The translations under genes and the position numbers were made by a program. A DNA stretch of 64,000 bases from Dehalococcoidia bacterium (GTDB taxonomy: Bacteria; Chloroflexota; Dehalococcoidia; GIF9; AB-539-J10). Below, in pieces: positions 2,809-55,760 of the stretch. The stretch spans positions 41,220 through 105,219 of the forward strand of contig DAOUMA010000005.1 of NCBI GenBank assembly GCA_034414555.1, in the 5' to 3' direction. The notes beneath the pieces were generated by a model, which worked only from the letters and a program-made list of their open reading frames with translations, did not search any database and was not told the DNA's origin. The stretch's first letter is position 1. Every line of letters starts with the position of its first letter.

Positions 2809-4017
2809 TCACTCCATTATCGGTCTTTCCTTAAGAGGCTTAATAGTTATCCCTGATTCTGCTCCGGGCAAAGGTGCTACTGGTTCGGTAAGTCTAAATT
2901 CGCCCTTTGCTATCCATAGTTTCAAGGTATTAGCGATTTCCTGAGCTTTATAGTAGCTGGATAAAGAAGCGGTGGGGACATCCTTTCCGTGAATTTTTAT
3001 GTGACCGCTTTTCAGTTCAGCGTAGCTCACTTCGCCGAGATTGCCCGCTTTCATTTTAGGGTAAGCTTCAGAATAGTCGATGATAGGGGCGAATATTTCA
3101 GCATCGGTCACAGTGGTATAGCGTAAAATCTCTTCAGAGAGTATCGGTATAGGAACGCCTATCCCTACGCTCAGGGTGCAACCATAGCCAAGCATGCTGG
3201 TTCCCACCAACCATTCTGGTTTCATCTGTTTTAAATCGCCGATTACCGCTAAAGTCCCGGCGGGCTCTAAGGGCACTCCATTATCCCCTCGGGGGACATC
3301 GGGATTGTGTTGTGTACCATGCCAGGCGACATAGCCCACGCCACCACCCAGGAATATCTTGGTTCCTATGCCTATGGTTTTATAATAGGGGTCATTAAGC
3401 AAGGGGGAAAGCTGTCCCGAGGTGCAGTAATTAGCGTTGCCCAGCTGTGGTTTCAACACACCCATATAGGTATAAATCATTCGGTTCGATAGGTTTACCC
3501 CGACATCATAGTTCTGGTAGGCGTTCCTTATGTTAAACAGGATGGCGTTATTTATGTCGTTGATGTTAATCCATGTTTCCAGCTTCTTTCTGGGGTAGCA
3601 GTCAGTCCCATAAGCGATAGCTTCTAACCTTATGTTTTTTCCGGCTACCAGCTCCTCGATGATATGTCCGCCGCCATACTGAAATTCGCCAGGATAGATT
3701 TTGTTTCTGGGGTCATCATCGGGCAAAGCAGTTGCGCCGAGGAAGATATCCACGGCTGCCAGACCGGTGTAGGCTGGAACATCGTTTAGATAAACCTTGC
3801 CGCCGCCAAACTTCATCCTCGGCGTGGAATGGCCGATGTTTAGAAACACGCCTGAAGAGCACATCGGGCTGAAGGTGCCCGTGGTAACGACATCGATTTC
3901 CTCGGCTGTCCTGGTAATGCCCTTTTCGCGGGCAATATCAATTATCTCTTCAGCGGTTACCACCGCCGCCTTTCCTTGTTTAATTTTTTCGTTAATCTCA
4001 GCGATTGTCTTTGCCAT
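2809..4017 (-). CDS. COG1900/DUF39 homocysteine-biosynthesis protein (MA1821-like; aspartate-semialdehyde sulfurtransferase family)
   Basis: 402 aa with a characteristic DUF39 core (…TGTFSPMCSSG…GGGHIIEELV…). Directly adjacent to a NIL-ferredoxin, as in the methanogen MA1821/MA1822 pair. Confidence 0.7.
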   Translation of the reverse strand: MAKTIAEINEKIKQGKAAVVTAEEIIDIAREKGITRTAEEIDVVTTGTFSPMCSSGVFLNIGHSTPRMKFGGGKVYLNDVPAYTGLAAVDIFLGATALPDDDPRNKIYPGEFQYGGGHIIEELVAGKNIRLEAIAYGTDCYPRKKLETWININDINNAILFNIRNAYQNYDVGVNLSNRMIYTYMGVLKPQLGNANYCTSGQLSPLLNDPYYKTIGIGTKIFLGGGVGYVAWHGTQHNPDVPRGDNGVPLEPAGTLAVIGDLKQMKPEWLVGTSMLGYGCTLSVGIGVPIPILSEEILRYTTVTDAEIFAPIIDYSEAYPKMKAGNLGEVSYAELKSGHIKIHGKDVPTASLSSYYKAQEIANTLKLWIAKGEFRLTEPVAPLPGAESGITIKPLKERPIME

Positions 4018-4793: not shown

Positions 4794-4838
4794 TAGCGTG
4801 CAATATTGGGATAGTATATGCTATTTAGCTAGTATTTG

Positions 4839-5069
4839 CTAGGGATTAGCGGCCCACAATCCTCGTTTTTGCTCTCGTGCCTCTCTCTCCAATTGGAGAA
4901 AATATTCTTGGTATTTGGTGTTTGGTGAATAGGAGTAACAATAGGCATAGCCTAGTTTAACAAGTTCAGCGTTAACCATAGTATTGTCCACCCATACGTA
5001 CCTGAGCAAGCGACCATATTCGTCTTTATCCTCAATGTCCTTTTCCAGGTAAACTTTCTTTCCCTCAAT
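4839..5069 (-). pseudogene. 3' remnant of a thermonuclease (staphylococcal-nuclease-like) gene; N-terminal ~half missing, no start codon
   Basis: The minus-strand frame between stop codons reads IEGKKVYLEKDIEDKDEYGRLLRYVWVDNTMVNAELVKLGYAYCYSYSPNTKYQEYFLQLEREAREQKRGLWAANP*. This matches the conserved C-terminal half of SNase-family nucleases (…YGR.LAYV..D…N..LV..G.A…). Upstream sequence is non-coding. Confidence 0.45.
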
Positions 5070-5221
5070 TCAGGCTTAGTTTTCATAAAGTTCTCGCTGT
5101 GAATCTATAGTGATTATACAGGAAAACTAAGGCTTGATAACTTTTTGTGTCTTTGAGAGCGAAGCGTGGCAATCTCATCCTCCGACTGACGGATAAGCGA
5201 AGCAACGCTGCATGTTAGAGA

Positions 5222-5370
5222 TTGTTTAGCAACCTATCTTCCTGCCCCCTTCCCTTGCTAAGGGAAGGGGGAGTGTAGGTAAGAGAGGGGTGAACCCCCT
5301 CTCCATAGATTTCTTCCCCTCTCCTTTGAAGGAGAGGGGGATAAAGGGGGTGAGGTTAGTAAACACTCTC
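5222..5370 (+). repeat. Intergenic repeat element copy 1 (~150 bp, three consecutive GC-rich hairpins)
   Basis: About 88% identical to 51608-51757. The hairpins are ccccttccctt-gcta-aagggaagggg, agagagggg-tgaa-ccccctctc and cccctctcct-ttga-aggagagggg, followed by the conserved tail gataaagggggtgaggttagtaaacactctc. Confidence 0.8.
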
Positions 5371-5524
5371 TATGTTACACAGGTTGTTATGGGTGCAAGC
5401 GAGGTATCTCTCTTGCAGATTGCTTCGTCGCTGACGTTTCTTGCAATGACAAGGTCGGCTTTTTCAGAGGTGGATGAAACTTGGCTCTTTAATTTGCCTC
5501 TGAAATGGGCTAAACTTTATCACC

Positions 5525-7978: not shown

Positions 7979-8770
7979 ATGAAAATAACATTTATTGGTG
8001 GTGGGACGATGGGAGAAGCAATGATTAAATGCCTTCTGGCTAAAAAGGTCGTTTTGCCTCAGGATATTGTGGTTAGCGATGTGAATGAATTAAGGCGTGA
8101 ATTATTAGCCCGAGAATATAAGGTGAAAACCTCTGCTGATAGTAGCAGAGCGGTGGAGAATGCTGATGTGGTTGTCCTGGCAATTAAGCCTAGGGATTTA
8201 GCGGAGGTGATGGAGGTCATAAGAGGGTCACTGCGCCAACAAGCCATATTATCCATAGTGGCTGGCGCTAGCTTATCTACTCTGAGTGATGGTTTAACTT
8301 ATCCTTATATCATTCGTGCTATGCCTAATATGCCTGCGCAGATTGGAGAAGGAATGACGGTATGGACTACGATGAGCGAAGCTACTCAGGAACATAAAAA
8401 GATGGCTCGCTCTATTCTTAGTGCTTTGGGTAAGGAACTTTATTTTCCCGATGAGAAGTATATTGATATGGCTACGGCTTTAAGTGGTAGTGGTCCAGCT
8501 TATGTATTTCTATTTATCGAAGTGCTTACCGATGCCGGCGTCCATATCGGTTTACCTTACAAAGCGGCTAAGGAATTAACACTACAGACGATACTTGGCT
8601 CTGCTTACATGGTGGAAAAGATGGAAAAACACCCTGCTGAGCTGAGAAACATGGTTACTTCTCCAGGTGGGACGACTGCTGAAGCTCTGGCTCAATTGGA
8701 GAGGGGAGGCTTTCGCTCCAGCATTCTTGAAGCTGTTATTGCTGCTTATGAGAAAGCCAAGCGACTTTAA
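7979..8770 (+). CDS. proC: Pyrroline-5-carboxylate reductase
   Basis: N-terminal Rossmann motif MKITFIGGGTMGEAM and a conserved P5CR C-terminal domain (SPGGTT). Confidence 0.9.
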   Translation: MKITFIGGGTMGEAMIKCLLAKKVVLPQDIVVSDVNELRRELLAREYKVKTSADSSRAVENADVVVLAIKPRDLAEVMEVIRGSLRQQAILSIVAGASLSTLSDGLTYPYIIRAMPNMPAQIGEGMTVWTTMSEATQEHKKMARSILSALGKELYFPDEKYIDMATALSGSGPAYVFLFIEVLTDAGVHIGLPYKAAKELTLQTILGSAYMVEKMEKHPAELRNMVTSPGGTTAEALAQLERGGFRSSILEAVIAAYEKAKRL

Positions 8771-8787
8771 GCAAGCAACAAGGTAAG

Positions 8788-9735
8788 ATGGATTCATTAT
8801 TTGAGCATCGTAATTGCCCCAATTGTGGAGAGAATGACTTTGAGGTGCTGTTCGACTCCAATATAAAGAGAGGTGACCTTCAAGGTGGTATAGATACTAT
8901 CTATATGCTTCCCGGGGATAAATATGGAAGGCATGTTAAGTGTCGAAAGTGCCAGCTTGTATGTGTAAATCCAATTGAGAAAGCAAGCCGAATCAACGAT
9001 AACTACTCTGAAATGAACAATGGCGATGTGTCTATTGTTCGGGAAAATCGCTTACGTGCCACTAAAGCGCAGGTGAAATTAGCCCAAAAATATAAGGGCA
9101 ATACCAAGCTTTTAGATATAGGTTGTGGGGAAGGGTTTTTCCTGTTTAATGCTTCCAGGGCAGGCTATATTACCGAGGGGGTTGAATTATCGCAGAATGC
9201 CGTGGAATATGCCAGGAGGGAGTTTGGCTTGGATGTAGAGGTAGGACCATTTGAAGAGATGCAATTTCCAGAAAACTATTTTGATGTGGTTACTTTATGG
9301 CAAGTTCTGGAGCATCTGCCACAACCGCTTATGGTTCTTAAAGAGGCCTGCAGGGTGCTTAAGCCAGGAGGGTTGCTGGTGGTATCAACGCCAGACTTTG
9401 GAGGGATACCAGCAAGAATCATGGGGAAAAGATGGTGGAATGTGAGGAGAATTCACATCAATCAATTTACCACCAAAACCCTTATGAACATTATGAAGAA
9501 TGCCGGGTTTGAGAATTTATCTTCGGTCAACTACAGGGAATCCATAAGTTTACTTATGCTGGTTATACCATTGTTGAGATGGTTTAAGGCGCGTAAGCTG
9601 GGAACGGCGTTACTCCACCCTGGCTCTACTCAAGGAAGGATTATGAATAAGATAACATTGGTATACCCTTCAAGACTCGATAACTGTGTAGCGATTGGCT
9701 TCAAACAGAAGTCTCAAGCTATTGCTAGCGAATGA
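8788..9735 (+). CDS. Class I SAM-dependent methyltransferase with N-terminal Cys4 zinc-ribbon (C-methyltransferase-like architecture)
   Basis: CPNCG…CRKCQ zinc ribbon followed by SAM motif I LLDIGCGEGFF and a post-I acidic residue. This resembles sugar/natural-product C-methyltransferases. Confidence 0.7.
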   Translation: MDSLFEHRNCPNCGENDFEVLFDSNIKRGDLQGGIDTIYMLPGDKYGRHVKCRKCQLVCVNPIEKASRINDNYSEMNNGDVSIVRENRLRATKAQVKLAQKYKGNTKLLDIGCGEGFFLFNASRAGYITEGVELSQNAVEYARREFGLDVEVGPFEEMQFPENYFDVVTLWQVLEHLPQPLMVLKEACRVLKPGGLLVVSTPDFGGIPARIMGKRWWNVRRIHINQFTTKTLMNIMKNAGFENLSSVNYRESISLLMLVIPLLRWFKARKLGTALLHPGSTQGRIMNKITLVYPSRLDNCVAIGFKQKSQAIASE

Positions 9736-10724
9736 CGAATTTTTCGGTATTACAAGGACTTAAGCTTGCCAGGAAGGCAATACGTAACTATATGACAAAT
9801 CGCCCTGTAGTGGTTTCTTATGAAGTGACTCTTTCTTGTAATTGCAACTGCTGCCATTGCGACCTCGGTGGCGTGATAAGGGACGAAAAGCAACTTCAGC
9901 CACATGAGTATGGTGAGCTAACTAGATTGTTGAATCCTCCTGTGTTGCAGATCTCAGGTGGGGAACCGTTTCTGCGTAAAGATATAATCGAGGTGGTGAA
10001 GGCTGTCAAGCAACCTGATGGGCTTCCCTATTTGATATTTGTTACCAATGGGGTGCTATTAAATGAGAGTAATTATCTTCAGTTACACGAAGCTGGTGTG
10101 AATCAAATTTCGGTATCGCTTGATTTTCCCGATGAAAGGCATGACGATTTCCGACGGCATCAGGGTTTGTATAAACGTTTGGAGAAGACACTTCCACAGT
10201 TAGCGAAGTTTGGTTATCGAGATATTATCTTGAACACAGTTATAACCAGAGCGAACCTGAAGGAAGTTTTGCCTATAGCTAGGAAGGCTGAAGAGTGGAA
10301 TGTATTCATATCATATAGCGCATATACTGCAAGACGGACGGGTGATAGAAGTTATTGTATCGCTAGTGAAGAAGAACAGGAAATTTTACGCAGAACTATT
10401 GAACAACTTTTGGAATTACAAAAGCGAACTAATCATATAGTTAACCCTAAAGCTGAACTTTTGGATACCTTGAAGTTCCTTGAGCAAGGATATATGCCTA
10501 ATTGCAAGGCGGGTATAAGGTTCTTCGTGGTAATGCCTGACGGAGCTTTTGTCCCGTGTTCACTATGGCGTAACAAATATTCCAGCCAAAAAGAGATGAT
10601 AGAAAAGTTCTCGCGCTCTAATCAATGTAGTGATTGTTATGTTAGTATAAGGGCTTACAGCGAGAGGTCATTTTGGGGTCAGGTAAAAGAGGCTCCAAGT
10701 TATGGCAAGCGGTTTTTCGCTTAA
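9732..10724 (+). CDS. Radical SAM protein with Cys-rich C-terminal (SPASM-like) region
   Basis: The CxxxCxxC cluster is embedded in SCNCNCCHCD. Additional C-terminal cysteines: NCKAG…PCSLW…NQCSDCYVS. The start overlaps the methyltransferase stop (ATGA), implying translational coupling. Confidence 0.7.
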   Translation: MTNFSVLQGLKLARKAIRNYMTNRPVVVSYEVTLSCNCNCCHCDLGGVIRDEKQLQPHEYGELTRLLNPPVLQISGGEPFLRKDIIEVVKAVKQPDGLPYLIFVTNGVLLNESNYLQLHEAGVNQISVSLDFPDERHDDFRRHQGLYKRLEKTLPQLAKFGYRDIILNTVITRANLKEVLPIARKAEEWNVFISYSAYTARRTGDRSYCIASEEEQEILRRTIEQLLELQKRTNHIVNPKAELLDTLKFLEQGYMPNCKAGIRFFVVMPDGAFVPCSLWRNKYSSQKEMIEKFSRSNQCSDCYVSIRAYSERSFWGQVKEAPSYGKRFFA

Positions 10725-12111: not shown

Positions 12112-12250
12112 TCTCAGTTATCATTTTATCGTAACTTACTCTCTGCTTCAACAATTGATGACTGCTTTCATGATTAGTGATGTATCATTTACCAGGCTCC
12201 CCCTTGCTTCAGGGTATTCTCTCTACTAGAATATATTCTTACGTAACCAC

Positions 12251-14044
12251 ATGGAGAAAATTTACCACAAATTTGTGGTACAACTGAAGCATATAGCTTC
12301 TTTTGCTACCCTTGCCTACCTGCGAAGGTGGCTTCCCGCCGTCATTTTGATTGGCATTACTGCCGGTGTAGCGTCTATTGCGTTCTTTTCTGCCATAAAC
12401 TGGGCTAGCAAGCTTTTCCTTGGTTTAGGGGCTGGTTTTGTTCCTCCTGTCCCCGCTGGTGTTGGCGAGACTGTTGTCACTGGAATAAGCAGGAAATGGA
12501 TGATTCCCGTAATAACCGCGATCGGTGGTCTAATAACCGGCTTTATCATCTATAAGTTGGCGCCTGAAGCTGAAGGTCACGGAACTGATGCTGCCATAGA
12601 TGCCTTTCACCGTAAGGATGGAGTGATACGAACTAGGATCCCTCTCCTTAAGTTGGTTGCTTCGGCGGTCACAATTGGCTCCGGTGGAAGTGCTGGCAGG
12701 GAAGGGCCAATGGCTCAGATCTCAGCTGGCTGTGGTTCCTTGGTAGGGAGACTATTCAGGTTTAACGCCCATGACCGCAGGCTGGCTGTAGCTGTGGGAA
12801 TTGGAACCGGGATTGGCTCTATATTTAAAGCACCTTTTGGTGGCGCTATACTAAGCGCAGAGATTTTGTACTTACAAGGATTTGAGGTAGAGGCTCTTCT
12901 TCCTTCATTTATATCCACAATCATTGGCTATTCTATCTATGCTAGCTGGTCTGGATTTGCTCCCATTTTTGGTGAACACGTTGCCATAAGCTTCTCCAAT
13001 CCTGCTACCCTGGGTTCTTACGCCCTATTAGGCATCCTTTGTGGCCTAGTAGGCATTGTGTATGCTCGCACATTTTACGGTGTGCGTAACCTTTTTCGTA
13101 GACTGAACATCTCAAACTGCTATAAACCGGCTATCGGCGGCTTGGTTACAGGCTTGATCGGGCTTGCTCTGCCGCAAGTATTGGGTATGGGATATGGCTG
13201 GCTTCAGTTGGCAATGCAACCTGAAAGATTGGCGCTTTCTGTCATGATAGCCTTGGTATTTGCCAAGATAGTGGCTACCTCCTTCTCTATAGGTTCCGGG
13301 GGTAGTGGTGGGGTGTTTGCTCCTGGCTTAGTTATGGGAGGCATGTTGGCCGCTTCACTGTGGACTTTAGGTCATAACTTTGTTGGTTCTTATTTGCCCT
13401 CTAATCCCGAGCCCTTCGTTGTCGTTGGCATGATGGCTCTTTTTGGTGCTGTGGCTCATGCTCCTGTAGCGGTGATTGTTATGGTGAGTGAGATGACAGG
13501 GACATATACGATGCTAGTGCCGGCCATGGTAGCAGTAGGCTTTGCTTATGTCATTGTAGGCAGGATTACTATTTACGAAAGCCAGATTTCATCCCCAATA
13601 GCTTCCCCAGCACACAAATATGAGTATGTCACCCCGCTTCTGAGGATAATGCAGGTAAAGCAGGCAATGGTCAGTGGTTGTGAGGTGATTTCTACAAAGG
13701 CAAGCGTGGAAGAAGCGGCAGAAATGATACATAGATGTAACATGGATATTCCGGTGGTAGATGCAGGGCAGCTAGTAGGAATAGTAGCCAGGGAGGATAT
13801 TCTTCCTATTCCGAGTGAGTCAAGAAGTATAACCAAGGTTGAAAGCGTGATGTCAACTGATTTAGCGGTGATTCATATTGAGGAAACGCTGGAGCAAGCA
13901 CTGGAACTCATGATAACCAGAAGAGTAGCTGTCTTGCCTGTAGTGGATAGGAAAGAGCCTACAAAACTTCTGGGCTTGGTGACCCGCGATAGCATCATCC
14001 AGGCTTATGAATTGGAGGCTAGAAAGATGTTAAGGAAAGTTTAG
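12251..14044 (+). CDS. ClC-family chloride channel/transporter with C-terminal CBS domain pair
   Basis: GSGGSAGREGP and GIFKAPFGG selectivity-filter motifs, multiple TM helices, C-terminal tandem CBS-like region. Confidence 0.85.
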   Translation: MEKIYHKFVVQLKHIASFATLAYLRRWLPAVILIGITAGVASIAFFSAINWASKLFLGLGAGFVPPVPAGVGETVVTGISRKWMIPVITAIGGLITGFIIYKLAPEAEGHGTDAAIDAFHRKDGVIRTRIPLLKLVASAVTIGSGGSAGREGPMAQISAGCGSLVGRLFRFNAHDRRLAVAVGIGTGIGSIFKAPFGGAILSAEILYLQGFEVEALLPSFISTIIGYSIYASWSGFAPIFGEHVAISFSNPATLGSYALLGILCGLVGIVYARTFYGVRNLFRRLNISNCYKPAIGGLVTGLIGLALPQVLGMGYGWLQLAMQPERLALSVMIALVFAKIVATSFSIGSGGSGGVFAPGLVMGGMLAASLWTLGHNFVGSYLPSNPEPFVVVGMMALFGAVAHAPVAVIVMVSEMTGTYTMLVPAMVAVGFAYVIVGRITIYESQISSPIASPAHKYEYVTPLLRIMQVKQAMVSGCEVISTKASVEEAAEMIHRCNMDIPVVDAGQLVGIVAREDILPIPSESRSITKVESVMSTDLAVIHIEETLEQALELMITRRVAVLPVVDRKEPTKLLGLVTRDSIIQAYELEARKMLRKV

Positions 14045-14055
14045 TCGGAGGTAAC

Positions 14056-14085
14056 TTGACAAGATTAACTTTGATTCCTTATAAT
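14056..14085 (+). promoter_or_regulatory. Near-consensus sigma-70 promoter upstream of pyrG (TTGACA-17 nt-TATAAT)
   Basis: TTGACA at 14056-14061, 17-nt spacer, TATAAT at 14080-14085; pyrG start lies ~75 nt downstream. Confidence 0.45.
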
Positions 14086-19338: not shown

Positions 19339-19680
19339 TGGTGGAGGCGGGGGAGAGTCGAACTCCCCGTCCATAGGGGGGTTGCCAGAATATTCTACAA
19401 GCTTGGCCAGCTCCATTTATCTCGCCTAACTTTCATCTGCTGACCGAATCCAGCTAAGCCAGTCGATTTCTCTTATCCAATCCTTATCGACATCGGGATT
19501 GGAGCACCTCGACTTTTTGACACCCAGTCCCGACCTTCGAGGAGAGGTTGGGGTGGGTGTGTAGCTTTAATTAGGCTGCAATAGGTTCGGCATTTATTTT
19601 TTGCCATTTGTTTTGTGAGGTTAATGGCACCTCAGCTTGCAATTCTGTAGGCCGTCCCATGTCGAATCCACGCGCCCCCG
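19339..19680 (-). ncRNA. ssrA: tmRNA (SsrA)
   Basis: The minus-strand RNA begins GGGGGCGCGUGGAUUCGACAUGGGACGGCC and ends …GGACGGGGAGUUCGACUCUCCCCCGCCUCCACCA (tRNA-like T-arm and acceptor with encoded CCA). It lies immediately downstream of smpB. Ends were placed by acceptor-stem pairing. Confidence 0.85.
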
Positions 19681-45975: not shown

Positions 45976-46048
<73 letters not shown>

Positions 46049-46063
46049 CTGTTTAAGTTATAT

Positions 46064-46148
46064 GCCGAAGTGGCGGAATGGTAGACGCGGCAGTCTCAAA
46101 AACTGTTGGGAGGCAACTCCCGTGTCGGTTCGACTCCGACCTTCGGCA
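46064..46148 (+). tRNA. tRNA-Leu (CAA)
   Basis: Type II tRNA with long variable arm; anticodon loop cuCAAaa; acceptor gccgaag/cttcggc; 85 nt. Confidence 0.85.
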
Positions 46149-46157
46149 GTGGTATAA

Positions 46158-46228
46158 TGCCGGGTTGTGTAGCGGTAGCACAGAGGACTTTGGATCCTTT
46201 AGCCCAGGTTCGAATCCTGGCCCGGCAG
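46158..46228 (+). tRNA. tRNA-Gln (TTG)
   Basis: Acceptor ugccggg/cccggca with a U1:A72 pair, as in many bacterial tRNA-Gln; anticodon loop cuUUGga; T-arm ccagg-ttcgaat-cctgg. Confidence 0.75.
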
Positions 46229-46241
46229 CGCAGTTAAATAT

Positions 46242-46313
46242 TCCCCGGTAGCTCAATGGTAGAGTAGGCGGCTGTTAACCGTTTGGTTGTAGGTTCGAGT
46301 CCTACCCGGGGAG
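46242..46313 (+). tRNA. tRNA-Asn (GTT)
   Basis: Acceptor tccccgg/ccgggga; anticodon loop cuGUUaa; T-arm gtagg-ttcgagt-cctac. Confidence 0.8.
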
Positions 46314-50296: not shown

Positions 50297-51599
50297 CCAA
50301 TTCTCCCCACATTCCCTGGTCGTGAACTGCGGTTAATTTGACCTTCGCTATTTTATTGGTCAATGATTTCTCGCTCTGAGTGAATACTCTAACATAATTA
50401 TCGGTCAGCCCGGAATATAGGCTACTTCCAGCGATTGTCTCCTTTTCCCATAAGACGTCTATGGTTTGTCCTAGGAATTGTTCCCGAAAGCTGTGCCGAC
50501 AACTTTGTGACAGCTCCAGCATCCTTGCGGTGCGTTCCTTCTTGACTTTATCGCTCACCTGGTAAAGCATTTCAACTGCCTCAGTGCCAGGTCGAGGTGA
50601 AAAGGGAAAAACATGGATGTTAGCGAAGCCGGCTTGGTGGCAAAAATTGTAGGTTTGCTCAAATTCTTCATCGCTTTCCCCGGGGAAGCCGACGACGACA
50701 TCGGTAGTGATAGCTACTCTGGGTATTGTCTGACTAATCAACTCTGTCACCTTCCTATAATCGTGCCGAGAATAAGGGCGTCGCATTCTCTTTAGCATAG
50801 TATCACTACCGCTTTGAAGAGCTAGATGGAAATGAGGGCATAACCTCTTGTCTTGCCACAATGCTAGAAGGGCTGGGGAGAATTCCTGAGGTTGCAATGA
50901 AGAAAGACGCAGTCGTTCAATTTCTGTGTTACTGAGGATGTGCTTTATTAAACTAACAAGATCGGTACTGTCATCTTTATAGCAGCCGATTTTTGTCCCG
51001 GTGAGAATAACCTCTCTATAATTCATGGCTACTTTTTCCTGAATCGTGCTGATTATTTCTGAGGCTGGCAGGCAAAACTGGTGGGTCCGCACTTTGGGAA
51101 CGATGCAGTAAGCACAGTGGCTGTCGCATCCATCTTGAATCTTTACCAAGGAGCGGACTCTGAAAGTACTATTTTGAATAGCAAGTGGTTGGATCTGTAG
51201 AGGTTCTATTTCAGGTGAGATGCTTTCTATGATTTCAACTAAGTTCTCTTTTTCTTCGTTGTCCAGAACGAAGTCAGCAATAGGTGTCAATTCCTGGGGA
51301 ATCCGTTGGGCATAACATCCGGTAGCGATGGTTAAAGCTCCGGGATTTTTCCGTTTCACCAGCCTAAGCCAGTGGCGCGACTTGCGATCGGCAATATGAG
51401 TGACCGTGCAAGTATTAGCAATATAGATGTCTGCTACATCGTTTGGTGATACAGGCTGGTAGCCAGCATCATGGAATTGGTCAATCAGGGATTCAGTTTC
51501 CGCTTGATTCAGTTTGCACCCCAGTGTATAGAAGGCTACCTTCAAGGTTCTTCTTTTGTACACAAAGTGATTATATTGGCTATTTGACTGTGTGGTCAA
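50268..51599 (-). CDS. mtaB: Radical-SAM methylthiotransferase (MtaB/MiaB-like)
   Basis: N-terminal MTTase domain (VAFYTLGCKLNQAE), radical SAM CDSHCAYC, C-terminal TRAM. Confidence 0.85.
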   Translation of the reverse strand: MTTQSNSQYNHFVYKRRTLKVAFYTLGCKLNQAETESLIDQFHDAGYQPVSPNDVADIYIANTCTVTHIADRKSRHWLRLVKRKNPGALTIATGCYAQRIPQELTPIADFVLDNEEKENLVEIIESISPEIEPLQIQPLAIQNSTFRVRSLVKIQDGCDSHCAYCIVPKVRTHQFCLPASEIISTIQEKVAMNYREVILTGTKIGCYKDDSTDLVSLIKHILSNTEIERLRLSSLQPQEFSPALLALWQDKRLCPHFHLALQSGSDTMLKRMRRPYSRHDYRKVTELISQTIPRVAITTDVVVGFPGESDEEFEQTYNFCHQAGFANIHVFPFSPRPGTEAVEMLYQVSDKVKKERTARMLELSQSCRHSFREQFLGQTIDVLWEKETIAGSSLYSGLTDNYVRVFTQSEKSLTNKIAKVKLTAVHDQGMWGELVENSSQGKA

Positions 51600-51607
51600 A
51601 TTGGTAG

Positions 51608-51757
51608 ATTGTTTAGTAACCTATCCCCCTGCCCCTTTTCCCTTAGCAAGAGAAGGGGGTATAGGTAAGAGAGGGGTGAAACCCCTCTCTATAAATCTCT
51701 TCCCCTTCTCCTTTGAAGGAGAGGGGGATAAAGGGGGTGAGGTTAGTAAACACTCTC
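51608..51757 (+). repeat. Intergenic repeat element copy 2 (triple-hairpin, ~150 bp)
   Basis: About 88% identical to 5222-5370, with an identical 31-nt 3' tail; begins 9 nt from the mtaB start codon. Confidence 0.8.
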
Positions 51758-51826
51758 AAATTGGTAGTATTTACCCTGTTTTTACCATCGTGGTATAGTT
51801 AAAAGTTCCTGTAGAGATCATTAAGT

Positions 51827-54329: not shown

Positions 54330-55760
54330 CTATCCCTTCCTTTTGGATATCTTGAACCACGGATGATAGCTAATTATGGAATCGGTGTCTAATTTACCGC
54401 GGATGAAATAATTAGCGATTCTTAAATAATCTGCTACTCTATCGGGCATCAAAAAGTGTTGTCTAACATATTCATGGGCTTTCTCCCCCACCAATTCGGC
54501 TTCTTTTGGGTTTGTTAATAAGTAGATTATCTTCCTAGCAGCCTTTTTTGCTGAAATGACAAAGAAGCCAGTCTCTCCACTGGTAACCTGAATTGGAATT
54601 GCCCCTACTTCTCTGGTTATCACCGGTTTCCTCTTCCACATGGCTTCGGTGATGGCCAGTCCGAATCCTTCCTTAATAGAGGGTTGCAGTATCACTCTGG
54701 CAGCTCGTTGCAGGGCATTTACCTCCAGCGCATTGACCTCCCGGTCATCTGGAAGCTTGATAATGTGAATATCAGGGTCGTCTTTCGTTTTCTCGCATAT
54801 CTGTGTGAAGACTATTTCACCTTCAGGGTCATCCGTAGCCATATTGCCAGCTATTATTAGTTGGCATTTTTCTTCATTTCGGGCAATTCTGTAGGCATGG
54901 ATAGTCAAATCAATTCCCTTCCAGGGGTCAAATCTGCCTATCTGAGCCAGCATGGGTATGTTCTGGTCTATTTCATATTTCTCCAATACCGGTGTAATTT
55001 CATTTTGGGTTAATTCTTTGTTCTTGTTGGAAAGAGGGTCGATGAACGGAGGGATTATGTATTTCTGTAGCGGCCAGTAATGTACAACATATTGGGCGCT
55101 GGAAAATATTGCCGCATCATAAAAATTAGCCCAGAACGTGATGAACTCCCATAAAGCGGGATTGGCTTCCAATGTCTCGACATCCACATCAATGTGAGAC
55201 CTCCATAACCACTTCTGTCCCTTCTTTTTTAAATAGCGAGCTAGACCAAGCGGCTGGGGGTCATGCATAATCACTATATCTGGCTTATAATCTCTGAAAT
55301 CTTCGGAATAAAGGTCGGCGTTTTCTTTAAGCGTATTGTAATATGTCCTTGTCATGTCCGGCGTGAGGATTCCTTTCTTTCCTTGCAATAGATTGTGGAT
55401 GGTTTTAGTTACCCGGAAGAAAGGCTCGGTCCCGCGCATAACCTTCCATTCATCTTCCAGTCCCAGAGCATTCAAAAACGGTACCTGGGAGTAAAGCATC
55501 TCAGCTACACCACCACCTGTTCCCGTTGAGTTGACCTCTAATATCTTTACCCCCCTGAGTTTGTGAGCAAGTTTTTCCAGTTTCTCTATCTTCTCTCCAC
55601 CCACTATGGGGATATAATCTTGTAAAGGGGATACAGAAAGGGACTGAATTCCCTCTCTGCGACTATACATAGTTCCGTTTTCCAAAGGCAGTTTCTTCTC
55701 CGCCTGCTCAACGATGTCTTTTATCTGAGTCTCCATCTTACTCTCATTGTAGTCATACAA
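54330..55760 (-). CDS. GT4-family glycosyltransferase (476 aa, with ~90-aa N-terminal extension)
   Basis: C-terminal GT-B motif EGFGLAITEAMWKRKPVI; the stop abuts the lgt start. Confidence 0.75.
   Translation of the reverse strand: MYDYNESKMETQIKDIVEQAEKKLPLENGTMYSRREGIQSLSVSPLQDYIPIVGGEKIEKLEKLAHKLRGVKILEVNSTGTGGGVAEMLYSQVPFLNALGLEDEWKVMRGTEPFFRVTKTIHNLLQGKKGILTPDMTRTYYNTLKENADLYSEDFRDYKPDIVIMHDPQPLGLARYLKKKGQKWLWRSHIDVDVETLEANPALWEFITFWANFYDAAIFSSAQYVVHYWPLQKYIIPPFIDPLSNKNKELTQNEITPVLEKYEIDQNIPMLAQIGRFDPWKGIDLTIHAYRIARNEEKCQLIIAGNMATDDPEGEIVFTQICEKTKDDPDIHIIKLPDDREVNALEVNALQRAARVILQPSIKEGFGLAITEAMWKRKPVITREVGAIPIQVTSGETGFFVISAKKAARKIIYLLTNPKEAELVGEKAHEYVRQHFLMPDRVADYLRIANYFIRGKLDTDSIISYHPWFKISKRKG

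Follow-up and report, generated by a model that had tools for sequence, protein, structure and literature searches.

Two hairpin-bearing intergenic repeats of a Dehalococcoidia bacterium as probable copies of a transposase-less mobile element

A repeated element upstream of leuS and recJ

The window analysed here is a stretch of 64,000 nucleotides from the genome of a Dehalococcoidia bacterium (assembly GCA_034414555.1, contig DAOUMA010000005.1). Two of its intergenic regions hold versions of the same 153-bp repeat, both on the plus strand and both matched at full length by an nhmmer profile. Copy A (5218 to 5370, GAGATTG...CACTCTC) lies between a minus-strand gene for a Thi4-type thiazole synthase and leuS (TIGR00396, 1042 bits), which starts 155 nt after it. 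Copy B (51605 to 51757) lies between the divergent genes mtaB (minus strand) and recJ (plus strand; TIGR00644, 508 bits), the latter starting 70 nt after the repeat. An earlier sequence-only reading had described the pair as about 88% identical and had given the same distances to the two genes. The copies are real, although their identity is 90% (139 identities over 155 columns in the global alignment of 5219-5370 with 51606-51757) and their limits are slightly wider than first proposed. The identical 31-nt tail of that reading is covered by 51 identical nt at the 3' ends of both copies, and the three GC-rich hairpins that it saw in each are also present. Neither copy has coding capacity, the ORFs that run through the GC-rich stems being spurious only.

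The limits were set by comparison with empty sites in relatives (loci from these are designated L plus a number), which give for both copies an element of 153 bp with the termini GAGA...TCTC and a duplication of 7 bp. Two features had been missed in the first reading. One is that the outer ca. 26 nt of each copy (GAGATTGTTTAGCAACCT... / ...AGGTTAGTAAACACTCTC) pair with each other in both folds, which identifies them as imperfect terminal inverted repeats. In copy A these are GAGATTGTTTAGCAACCTATCTTCCT (5218-5243) and AGGGGGTGAGGTTAGTAAACACTCTC (5345-5370), both conserved in the family and recovered by an inverted-repeat search; over the outer 20 nt the arms (5216-5235 and 5353-5372) are 85% complementary. 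In copy B they occupy 51605-51630 and 51732-51757, as indicated by the fold and by family conservation, and the terminal G has mutated to T in the window. The other is a 7-bp direct repeat that flanks each copy. Around copy A it is imperfect, CATGTTA on the left (5211-5217) and TATGTTA on the right (5371-5377), while the MNYD01 ortholog (L029) keeps TATGTTA on both sides; in L138 the uninterrupted site contains TATGTTA only once, which fixes both ends of the element. Around copy B it is AAATTGG on both sides (51598-51604 and 51758-51764), and the empty sites (GTGGTC-AAATTGG-TAGTATT) hold one such 7-mer.

Between these ends, copy A has a first hairpin with a perfect 12-bp stem and the 3-nt loop GCT (5245-5271), which is the flipped form of AGC, the commonest loop in the family; a second with the structure AGAGAGGGG-TGAAC-CCCCTCTCC (5282-5304); and a third, CCCCTCTCCTT-TG-AAGGAGAGGGG (5316-5339). 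The corresponding structures of copy B are a degenerate hairpin 1 with the loop AGC (51632-51659), carrying several mutations relative to a consensus that the MNYD01 ortholog has kept, hairpin 2 (51668-51690) and hairpin 3, in which an extra T forms a bulge (51702-51726); all six are given on the plus strand. The predicted folding energies are -88.6 and -84.4 kcal/mol for copies A and B (z = -7.1 and -6.8 against shuffled sequences). The differences between the two copies had been taken as partly compensatory within stems, a pattern that we did not see: the main difference in hairpin 1 is a reverse-complemented loop (TTGCTAA versus TTAGCAA), and the remaining ones are decay of this hairpin in copy B of the window.

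Copy A is itself nested within a second MITE-like element, made up of 5149-5217 and 5378-5450 of the window. Without the insert this second element is 142 bp long, with the ends GTCATTGCGAGCGAAGC.../...GCTTCTCGCCATGAC and a fold of -64 kcal/mol. It is found uninterrupted at the start of contig L138, and other full-length copies are present in L086, L036, L040 and L005. The region next to it has also changed. In L137, two extra minus-strand genes (SNase-like and BACON-domain) lie between thi4 and leuS (8685-9950), while the window sequence at 4794-5148 aligns with this region up to 5068 only and has no long ORF; at the place now taken by the two nested MITEs these genes have therefore been lost or have decayed. 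A 402-aa protein is encoded beside thi4 (2809-4017, minus strand), with a sub-threshold match to TIGR03287 "methanogenesis marker 16 metalloprotein" (124 bits, cut-off 364); for the L137 ortholog the Pfam entry HcyBio is given.

Empty sites, target duplications and spread of the family

The first 105 loci of relatives, all of them chosen for carrying the element, contained only orthologous filled sites with differing internal content, and homologs of the RecJ and LeuS proteins served to retrieve further loci. Site B is empty in L130 and L131 (94.5–95.5% DNA identity to the window) and in L134 (82%), where it reads ...GTGGTC AAATTGG TAGTATTTACC... with a single AAATTGG, and filled, as AAATTGG-element-AAATTGG, in the window, in L072 (MNYD01, 91%) and in L132 and L133 (93%). 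Site A is empty in L138 (97% identity), with the uninterrupted sequence ...CACTG TATGTTA CACAGG... and one 7-mer, and copy A is absent also from L137 (96.6%). At a third site, between rsmD and pyrG, a MITE copy is present in MNYD01 (L029, 7055-7218) and in L137 (16640-16793) and none in the window. The insertion patterns differ, then, among genomes that are 95–97% identical, so that the copies can be used as strain-level markers. At site B the pattern is moreover out of step with overall similarity (empty at 95% identity, filled at 93% and 91%, empty again at 82%), which points to either precise loss of the element together with one 7-mer or recombination between alleles.

Two gene differences were noticed in the same comparisons. 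Between rsmD and pyrG the window carries the gene of a 597-aa ClC-type channel with a C-terminal CBS-like region (12152-14079; ORF 12251-14044), which is missing at this position in L029 (91%) and L137 (96.6%), where the MITE copy is found instead. A trehalose-synthase-like GT4 glycosyltransferase gene (54345-55672; ORF 54330-55760, minus strand) is shared with L132-L134 and absent from L130 (94.5%), in which the alignment jumps from 54344 to 55673.

The duplications are not peculiar to the window. Direct repeats of 6 bp or more that match exactly flank 32 of the 61 elements in which both ends are recognisable (52%), compared to ca. 1.6% when upstream and downstream flanks were paired at random. 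The duplicated target sequence is arbitrary and rich in A+T (74%), and the outermost bases of the element are G in 52 and C in 49 of 67 cases. The length of the duplication is about 7–10 bp, with clear cases up to 10–11 bp, and a single fixed length had to be rejected, as the best combination of offset and length fits at most 15 of 67 elements. A single transposase would not usually leave such variation; some of the copies, however, are old or eroded at the ends.

A wider search for copies had been proposed as a check of the first reading, and it retrieved many of them, across species, mostly intergenic and in both orientations. With a degenerate 23-nt pattern covering both ends, scanned against a collection with one genome per species, more than 105 stretches (8 kb each) were found, from ca. 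30 species among the matches listed; the hosts among these were nearly all metagenome-assembled genomes of Dehalococcoidia, Dehalococcoidales or Chloroflexota. Three matches in Pelagibacter and one in L100 are due to chance, with nothing beyond the pattern present, and a cyanobacterial origin of the family, akin to Nezha or small dispersed repeats, was also discarded, the hosts in the genome scan being Dehalococcoidia. The nhmmer profile built from the window copies detected at least 183–190 non-overlapping members in 700 kb of matching loci, 37–49 of them full length and 16 touching the end of a locus. At least 20 separate 8-kb stretches with the end pattern come from the MNYD01 assembly alone. 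The same profile gave zero further copies in the window beyond A and B, and there were zero matches in viral contigs and, by blastn with copy A, in a plasmid collection. For the window's own genome (Logan SRR14802572, 100% identical), contigs break off at 5354 within copy A and at 51729 within copy B, as would be expected if a multi-copy repeat breaks the assembly of short reads. We regard this family, together with the second one that hosts copy A, as a main cause of contig breaks in metagenome assemblies of Dehalococcoidia. Among the individual loci, L009 (6259-7805), from a groundwater Chloroflexi genome, has five divergent members clustered within 1.6 kb, and a partial member was found in L028 (973-1064), on a 4-kb contig binned as "uncultured archaeon" that is most likely mis-binned Dehalococcoidia.

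The sequence-only reading had called the repeats REP/MITE-like. The second half of this description is borne out by the inverted repeats, the duplications, the filled and precisely empty sites and the many dispersed copies, spread widely through the Dehalococcoidia and placed between genes in either orientation. These are the features of bacterial MITEs, as are the small size and the lack of coding sequence, and the 150-bp repeats are very probably copies of such a transposase-less mobile element, i.e., a short DNA transposon without a gene of its own. The ca. 26-nt terminal inverted repeats, with the sequence GAGATTGTTTAGCAACCTATCCCCCT and an imperfect complement of it, would be bound by a transposase provided in trans, which would make a staggered cut at the target and insert the element; repair of the stagger would leave the flanking direct repeat. 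The three GC-rich hairpins would be cargo and not a transposition signal, their number and identity varying between copies, and they would be remodelled within the element through deletions between short repeats and through inversions that flip the loop. Any effect on leuS or recJ would be incidental.

Internal hairpins and placement relative to genes

The cargo is indeed the variable part of the family. The elements measure 78–364 bp from end to end, with a mode at 151–155 bp, and hold from one to about eight perfect hairpins of several sequence types; in copies from metagenomes these ends enclose a long hairpin of quite another kind. Orthologs from different species are distinguished by deletions in their interior, each lying between short direct repeats, which give lengths of 106, 170 and 187 bp at one site and of 205 versus 276 bp at another. 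In addition, when copies are aligned in the same orientation the loops occur as reverse-complement pairs: AGC/GCT, AAT/ATT, ACT/AGT, GGT/ACC and GAT/ATC in hairpin 1, and TGAAA/TTTCA, CTTCG/CGAAG and CTTTG/CAAAG in hairpin 2. The two window copies differ by one such flip in hairpin 1 (GCT in A, AGC in B), and flips are seen also between orthologs, as in hairpin 2 of copy A (TGAAC in the window, TTTCA in MNYD01) or with CAGAG versus CTCTG in L084 and L091. The simplest reading of a flipped loop would be inversion of the whole hairpin at the DNA level, through strand switching between its arms, and a process of this kind could keep the palindromes perfect without any selection on RNA. The flipped loops at orthologous sites provide a clean natural example of hairpin-mediated inversion. 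The hairpins themselves do not appear to be independently mobile units, a possibility that we rejected after all 28 apparently isolated matches proved to have divergent but recognisable element ends.

The alternative suggested by the sequence-only reading was a structured cis-regulatory leader or a family of sRNAs, in which the hairpins would act in the transcript (as attenuator, stabiliser or protein-binding site) to control leuS, recJ and other genes. The very stable predicted structure (z about -7) would fit this idea, as would the pairing of 94.7% of the stem positions across 37 copies and 11 both-sided pair changes, a number that none of 500 shuffles reached; such changes occur across the wider family and were not seen between the two window copies. 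All 11 changes fall within the three internal hairpins, while the terminal repeats are conserved in sequence over the same 37 copies with zero both-sided changes. What is conserved is thus the sequence in the ends, as one would expect of a protein-binding site, and the palindrome in the hairpins. The mismatches allow a further distinction: G·T and A·C are balanced in hairpin 1 (9 versus 7) and hairpin 2 (7 versus 9), with no sign of tolerance to wobble pairs on one transcribed strand. In hairpin 3 the excess of G·T (38 versus 10) is largely due to one fixed outer T·G position.

The placement of the copies bears on the same question. Of the scorable copies 60 out of 63 are intergenic, and the downstream gene has the orientation of the element in 42 of the 60 (22 between divergent genes and 20 along co-directional ones), as it does at both window copies. 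However, 12 copies are antisense between tandem genes and six lie between convergent genes, and the lack of a strict strand rule argues against a strand-specific RNA element. Both window copies are located 5' of plus-strand housekeeping genes, as first noted, but that they belong to the 5' leaders is doubtful, and unlikely in the case of recJ, whose only promoter-like site (TTTACC-18-TATAGT, 51770-51799, by consensus match) is downstream of copy B. No match was found in Rfam at either site with gathering thresholds, and permissive ones returned only chance matches to eukaryotic miRNA and snoRNA models (E 0.08–0.6). Hairpin 1 of copy B is decaying, orthologous copies diverge at about the same rate as the intergenic DNA around them, loops flip and whole hairpins are gained or lost at orthologous sites, and both sites are empty in close relatives. 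A role as regulatory RNA is thus very unlikely. The family is most readily taken as an ordinary kind of selfish DNA, apparently undescribed in Dehalococcoidia, and explaining these structured repeats beside housekeeping genes as mobile DNA avoids their mis-annotation as riboswitch-like leaders or sRNAs.

A different possibility is that the element arrived by transposition and that the host has since kept its hairpin cargo as an insulator, a stabiliser of transcript ends or a weak terminator. The stems are better conserved than the loops and some changes are both-sided, so that some constraint on the hairpins themselves is possible, although template switching at the DNA level can produce both the upkeep of the palindromes and the flipped loops without selection. 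The element lies more often between divergent genes than between convergent ones (22 to 6), which could equally follow from the preference for AT-rich targets. At site B the surroundings are suggestive. A strong promoter-like site for mtaB (TTGACC-18-TATAAT, 51599-51570, minus strand, by consensus match) abuts the left end of copy B, which sits exactly between this site and that of recJ, back to back and both intact; in the empty site two -35-like hexamers are found 10 nt apart, and the element was inserted between them. Besides, solitary exact 18-nt MITE ends (GAGATTGTTTAGCAACCT) persist 40–90 nt upstream of housekeeping genes (probable recA, hisB, RNase PH) in metagenome contigs: L117, L118, L124 and L129 (which represent the same locus), L125, L122 and L106/L123. 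Such ends could be left over from elements since deleted, or could have been retained. On the other hand, no terminator-like sites were predicted in copy A or B, the copies are missing from close relatives and the orthologs evolve at about the rate of their flanks. We therefore consider co-option by the host improbable.

Mobilising enzyme and comparison with known repeats

If the repeats are MITEs, as we favour, they would be moved by a DDE-type transposase acting in trans, the kind of enzyme indicated by the 7–10-bp duplications and by the long terminal repeats. An insertion sequence with the ends of the family (GAGATTGTTTAGCAACC) was sought in the window, in the genome loci (700 kb), in 24 loci from metagenomes and in viral contigs, and none was found. 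Pairs of ends located 810–3361 bp apart enclosed ordinary genes (RNase III, holA, a radical-SAM enzyme, ribosomal protein L25) and no transposase, and an all-against-all blastp of 749 ORFs from the 700 kb revealed no repeated transposase-like protein. The search of metagenomes (24 loci) with the end lacking the C-run of the MITE gave elements with other cargo and solitary ends, the latter adjoining pyrG, tatC, hisB, RNase PH and probable recA, and again no transposase. A multi-copy MITE without a visible parent transposase in small, streamlined genomes poses a modest question of mobilisation.

That no DDE transposase was found would agree with another type of mobility, in which a palindromic element of the REP/REPIN or IS200/IS605 kind is moved as single-stranded DNA by an HUH enzyme (RAYT or TnpA) that recognises hairpins. 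The GC-rich perfect palindromes, their intergenic location and the loop flips, suggestive of hairpin extrusion in single-stranded DNA, are all in line with it. REP and REPIN sequences mobilised by RAYTs are short GC-rich palindromes with many intergenic copies and no target duplication (PMC3116915). The present elements have, in contrast, long terminal inverted repeats of fixed sequence, which are their conserved feature in place of a subterminal hairpin, and a duplicated target of 7–10 bp in the window copies and in about half of the family, while HUH systems insert without duplication; the number of hairpins goes from one to eight between constant ends, and no HUH gene was noticed in the loci. 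Mobilisation of this kind is extremely unlikely, and the duplication of the target separates the family from REP/REPIN.

A more speculative proposal, to which we would assign a small probability, combines several of these elements: the conserved ends would frame a self-renewing array of hairpins (units gained, lost and inverted), kept by the host as an insulator or transcript-end structure and moved by a host-encoded or unconventional enzyme. The latter is proposed because no insertion sequence with these ends was found in about 30 small Dehalococcoidia genomes. If true, this would be a modular system similar to BOX and new for Chloroflexota.

With the family taken as MITEs, its closest parallels can be considered. 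Bacterial MITEs have about 50–600 bp, inverted-repeat ends, duplications and no transposase, and MITEAba12 of Acinetobacter, whose parent is ISAba12, is constant both in length (113 bp) and in its duplication (9 bp; PMC6382973). Like MITEAba12, the present elements are small, non-coding, dispersed across related species and provided with inverted-repeat ends and AT-rich duplicated targets, and in both cases the duplications are intact in about half of the copies (40% in MITEAba12 versus 52%, counted at 6 bp or more, here). The present family differs in that no parent was found in the loci searched and that both its length (78–364 bp) and its duplication (7–10 bp) vary. Its GC-rich cargo, in a genome of 45% GC, also contrasts with the AT-rich composition usually given for bacterial MITEs.

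Correia elements (CREE/NEMIS) of Neisseria have about 100–155 bp and inverted-repeat ends of ca. 26 nt, and duplicate a TA dinucleotide. To our knowledge they have no cognate transposase and are confined to Neisseria. They resemble the present family in size, ends, high copy number, intergenic position often near promoters and the missing cognate transposase, but by their description are set apart from it by the TA duplication (against arbitrary AT-rich targets of 7–10 bp), by their hosts and by the absence of arrayed, independent GC-rich hairpins. The BOX elements of Streptococcus pneumoniae are built from the modules boxA, boxB and boxC, units of 45–59 nt. Here as there, internal modules in varying number lie between conserved ones at the ends, and the whole can fold stably; by description, however, the BOX units are unrelated in sequence to ours, which are short perfect hairpins of several kinds. 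Since the type of duplication, the end sequences and the hosts all differ, the elements do not belong to the MITEAba12, Correia or BOX families. In Nostoc, small dispersed hairpin repeats were reportedly found nested in MITE-like sequences by Elhai et al. in 2008. The likeness lies in short hairpin units within larger inverted-repeat elements and in small elements nested in one another; the phylum is a different one, and in our case the hairpins never occur outside an element with recognisable ends. In full-text searches of the literature, MITEs of Dehalococcoidia or Chloroflexi were not found described, consistent with the first impression that the repeat was not a described element. The general understanding of MITEs is unchanged by the present family.

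Some smaller repeats and neighbouring features were seen along the way. A variant related to the second MITE-like element, GTCATTCTGAGC...GCGAAGAATC, is the cargo between the ends of the first family in L107, L108, L114, L115 and L126, and a shorter 28-nt motif, GTCATTGCGAGCGAAGCGAAGCAATCT, recurs in L010, L038, L071, L090 and L095. The short motif TTTGATTTTTGAG is repeated just outside MITE copies in L071, L010 and L090, and may be another small repeat or a preferred target context. The window also contains a cluster of four tRNA genes (45976-46313, plus strand) and the tmRNA gene (19339-19679, minus strand, 149 bits), and in the distant relatives L060 and L080 a family member or an end match is located no more than a few hundred bp from the tmRNA region.
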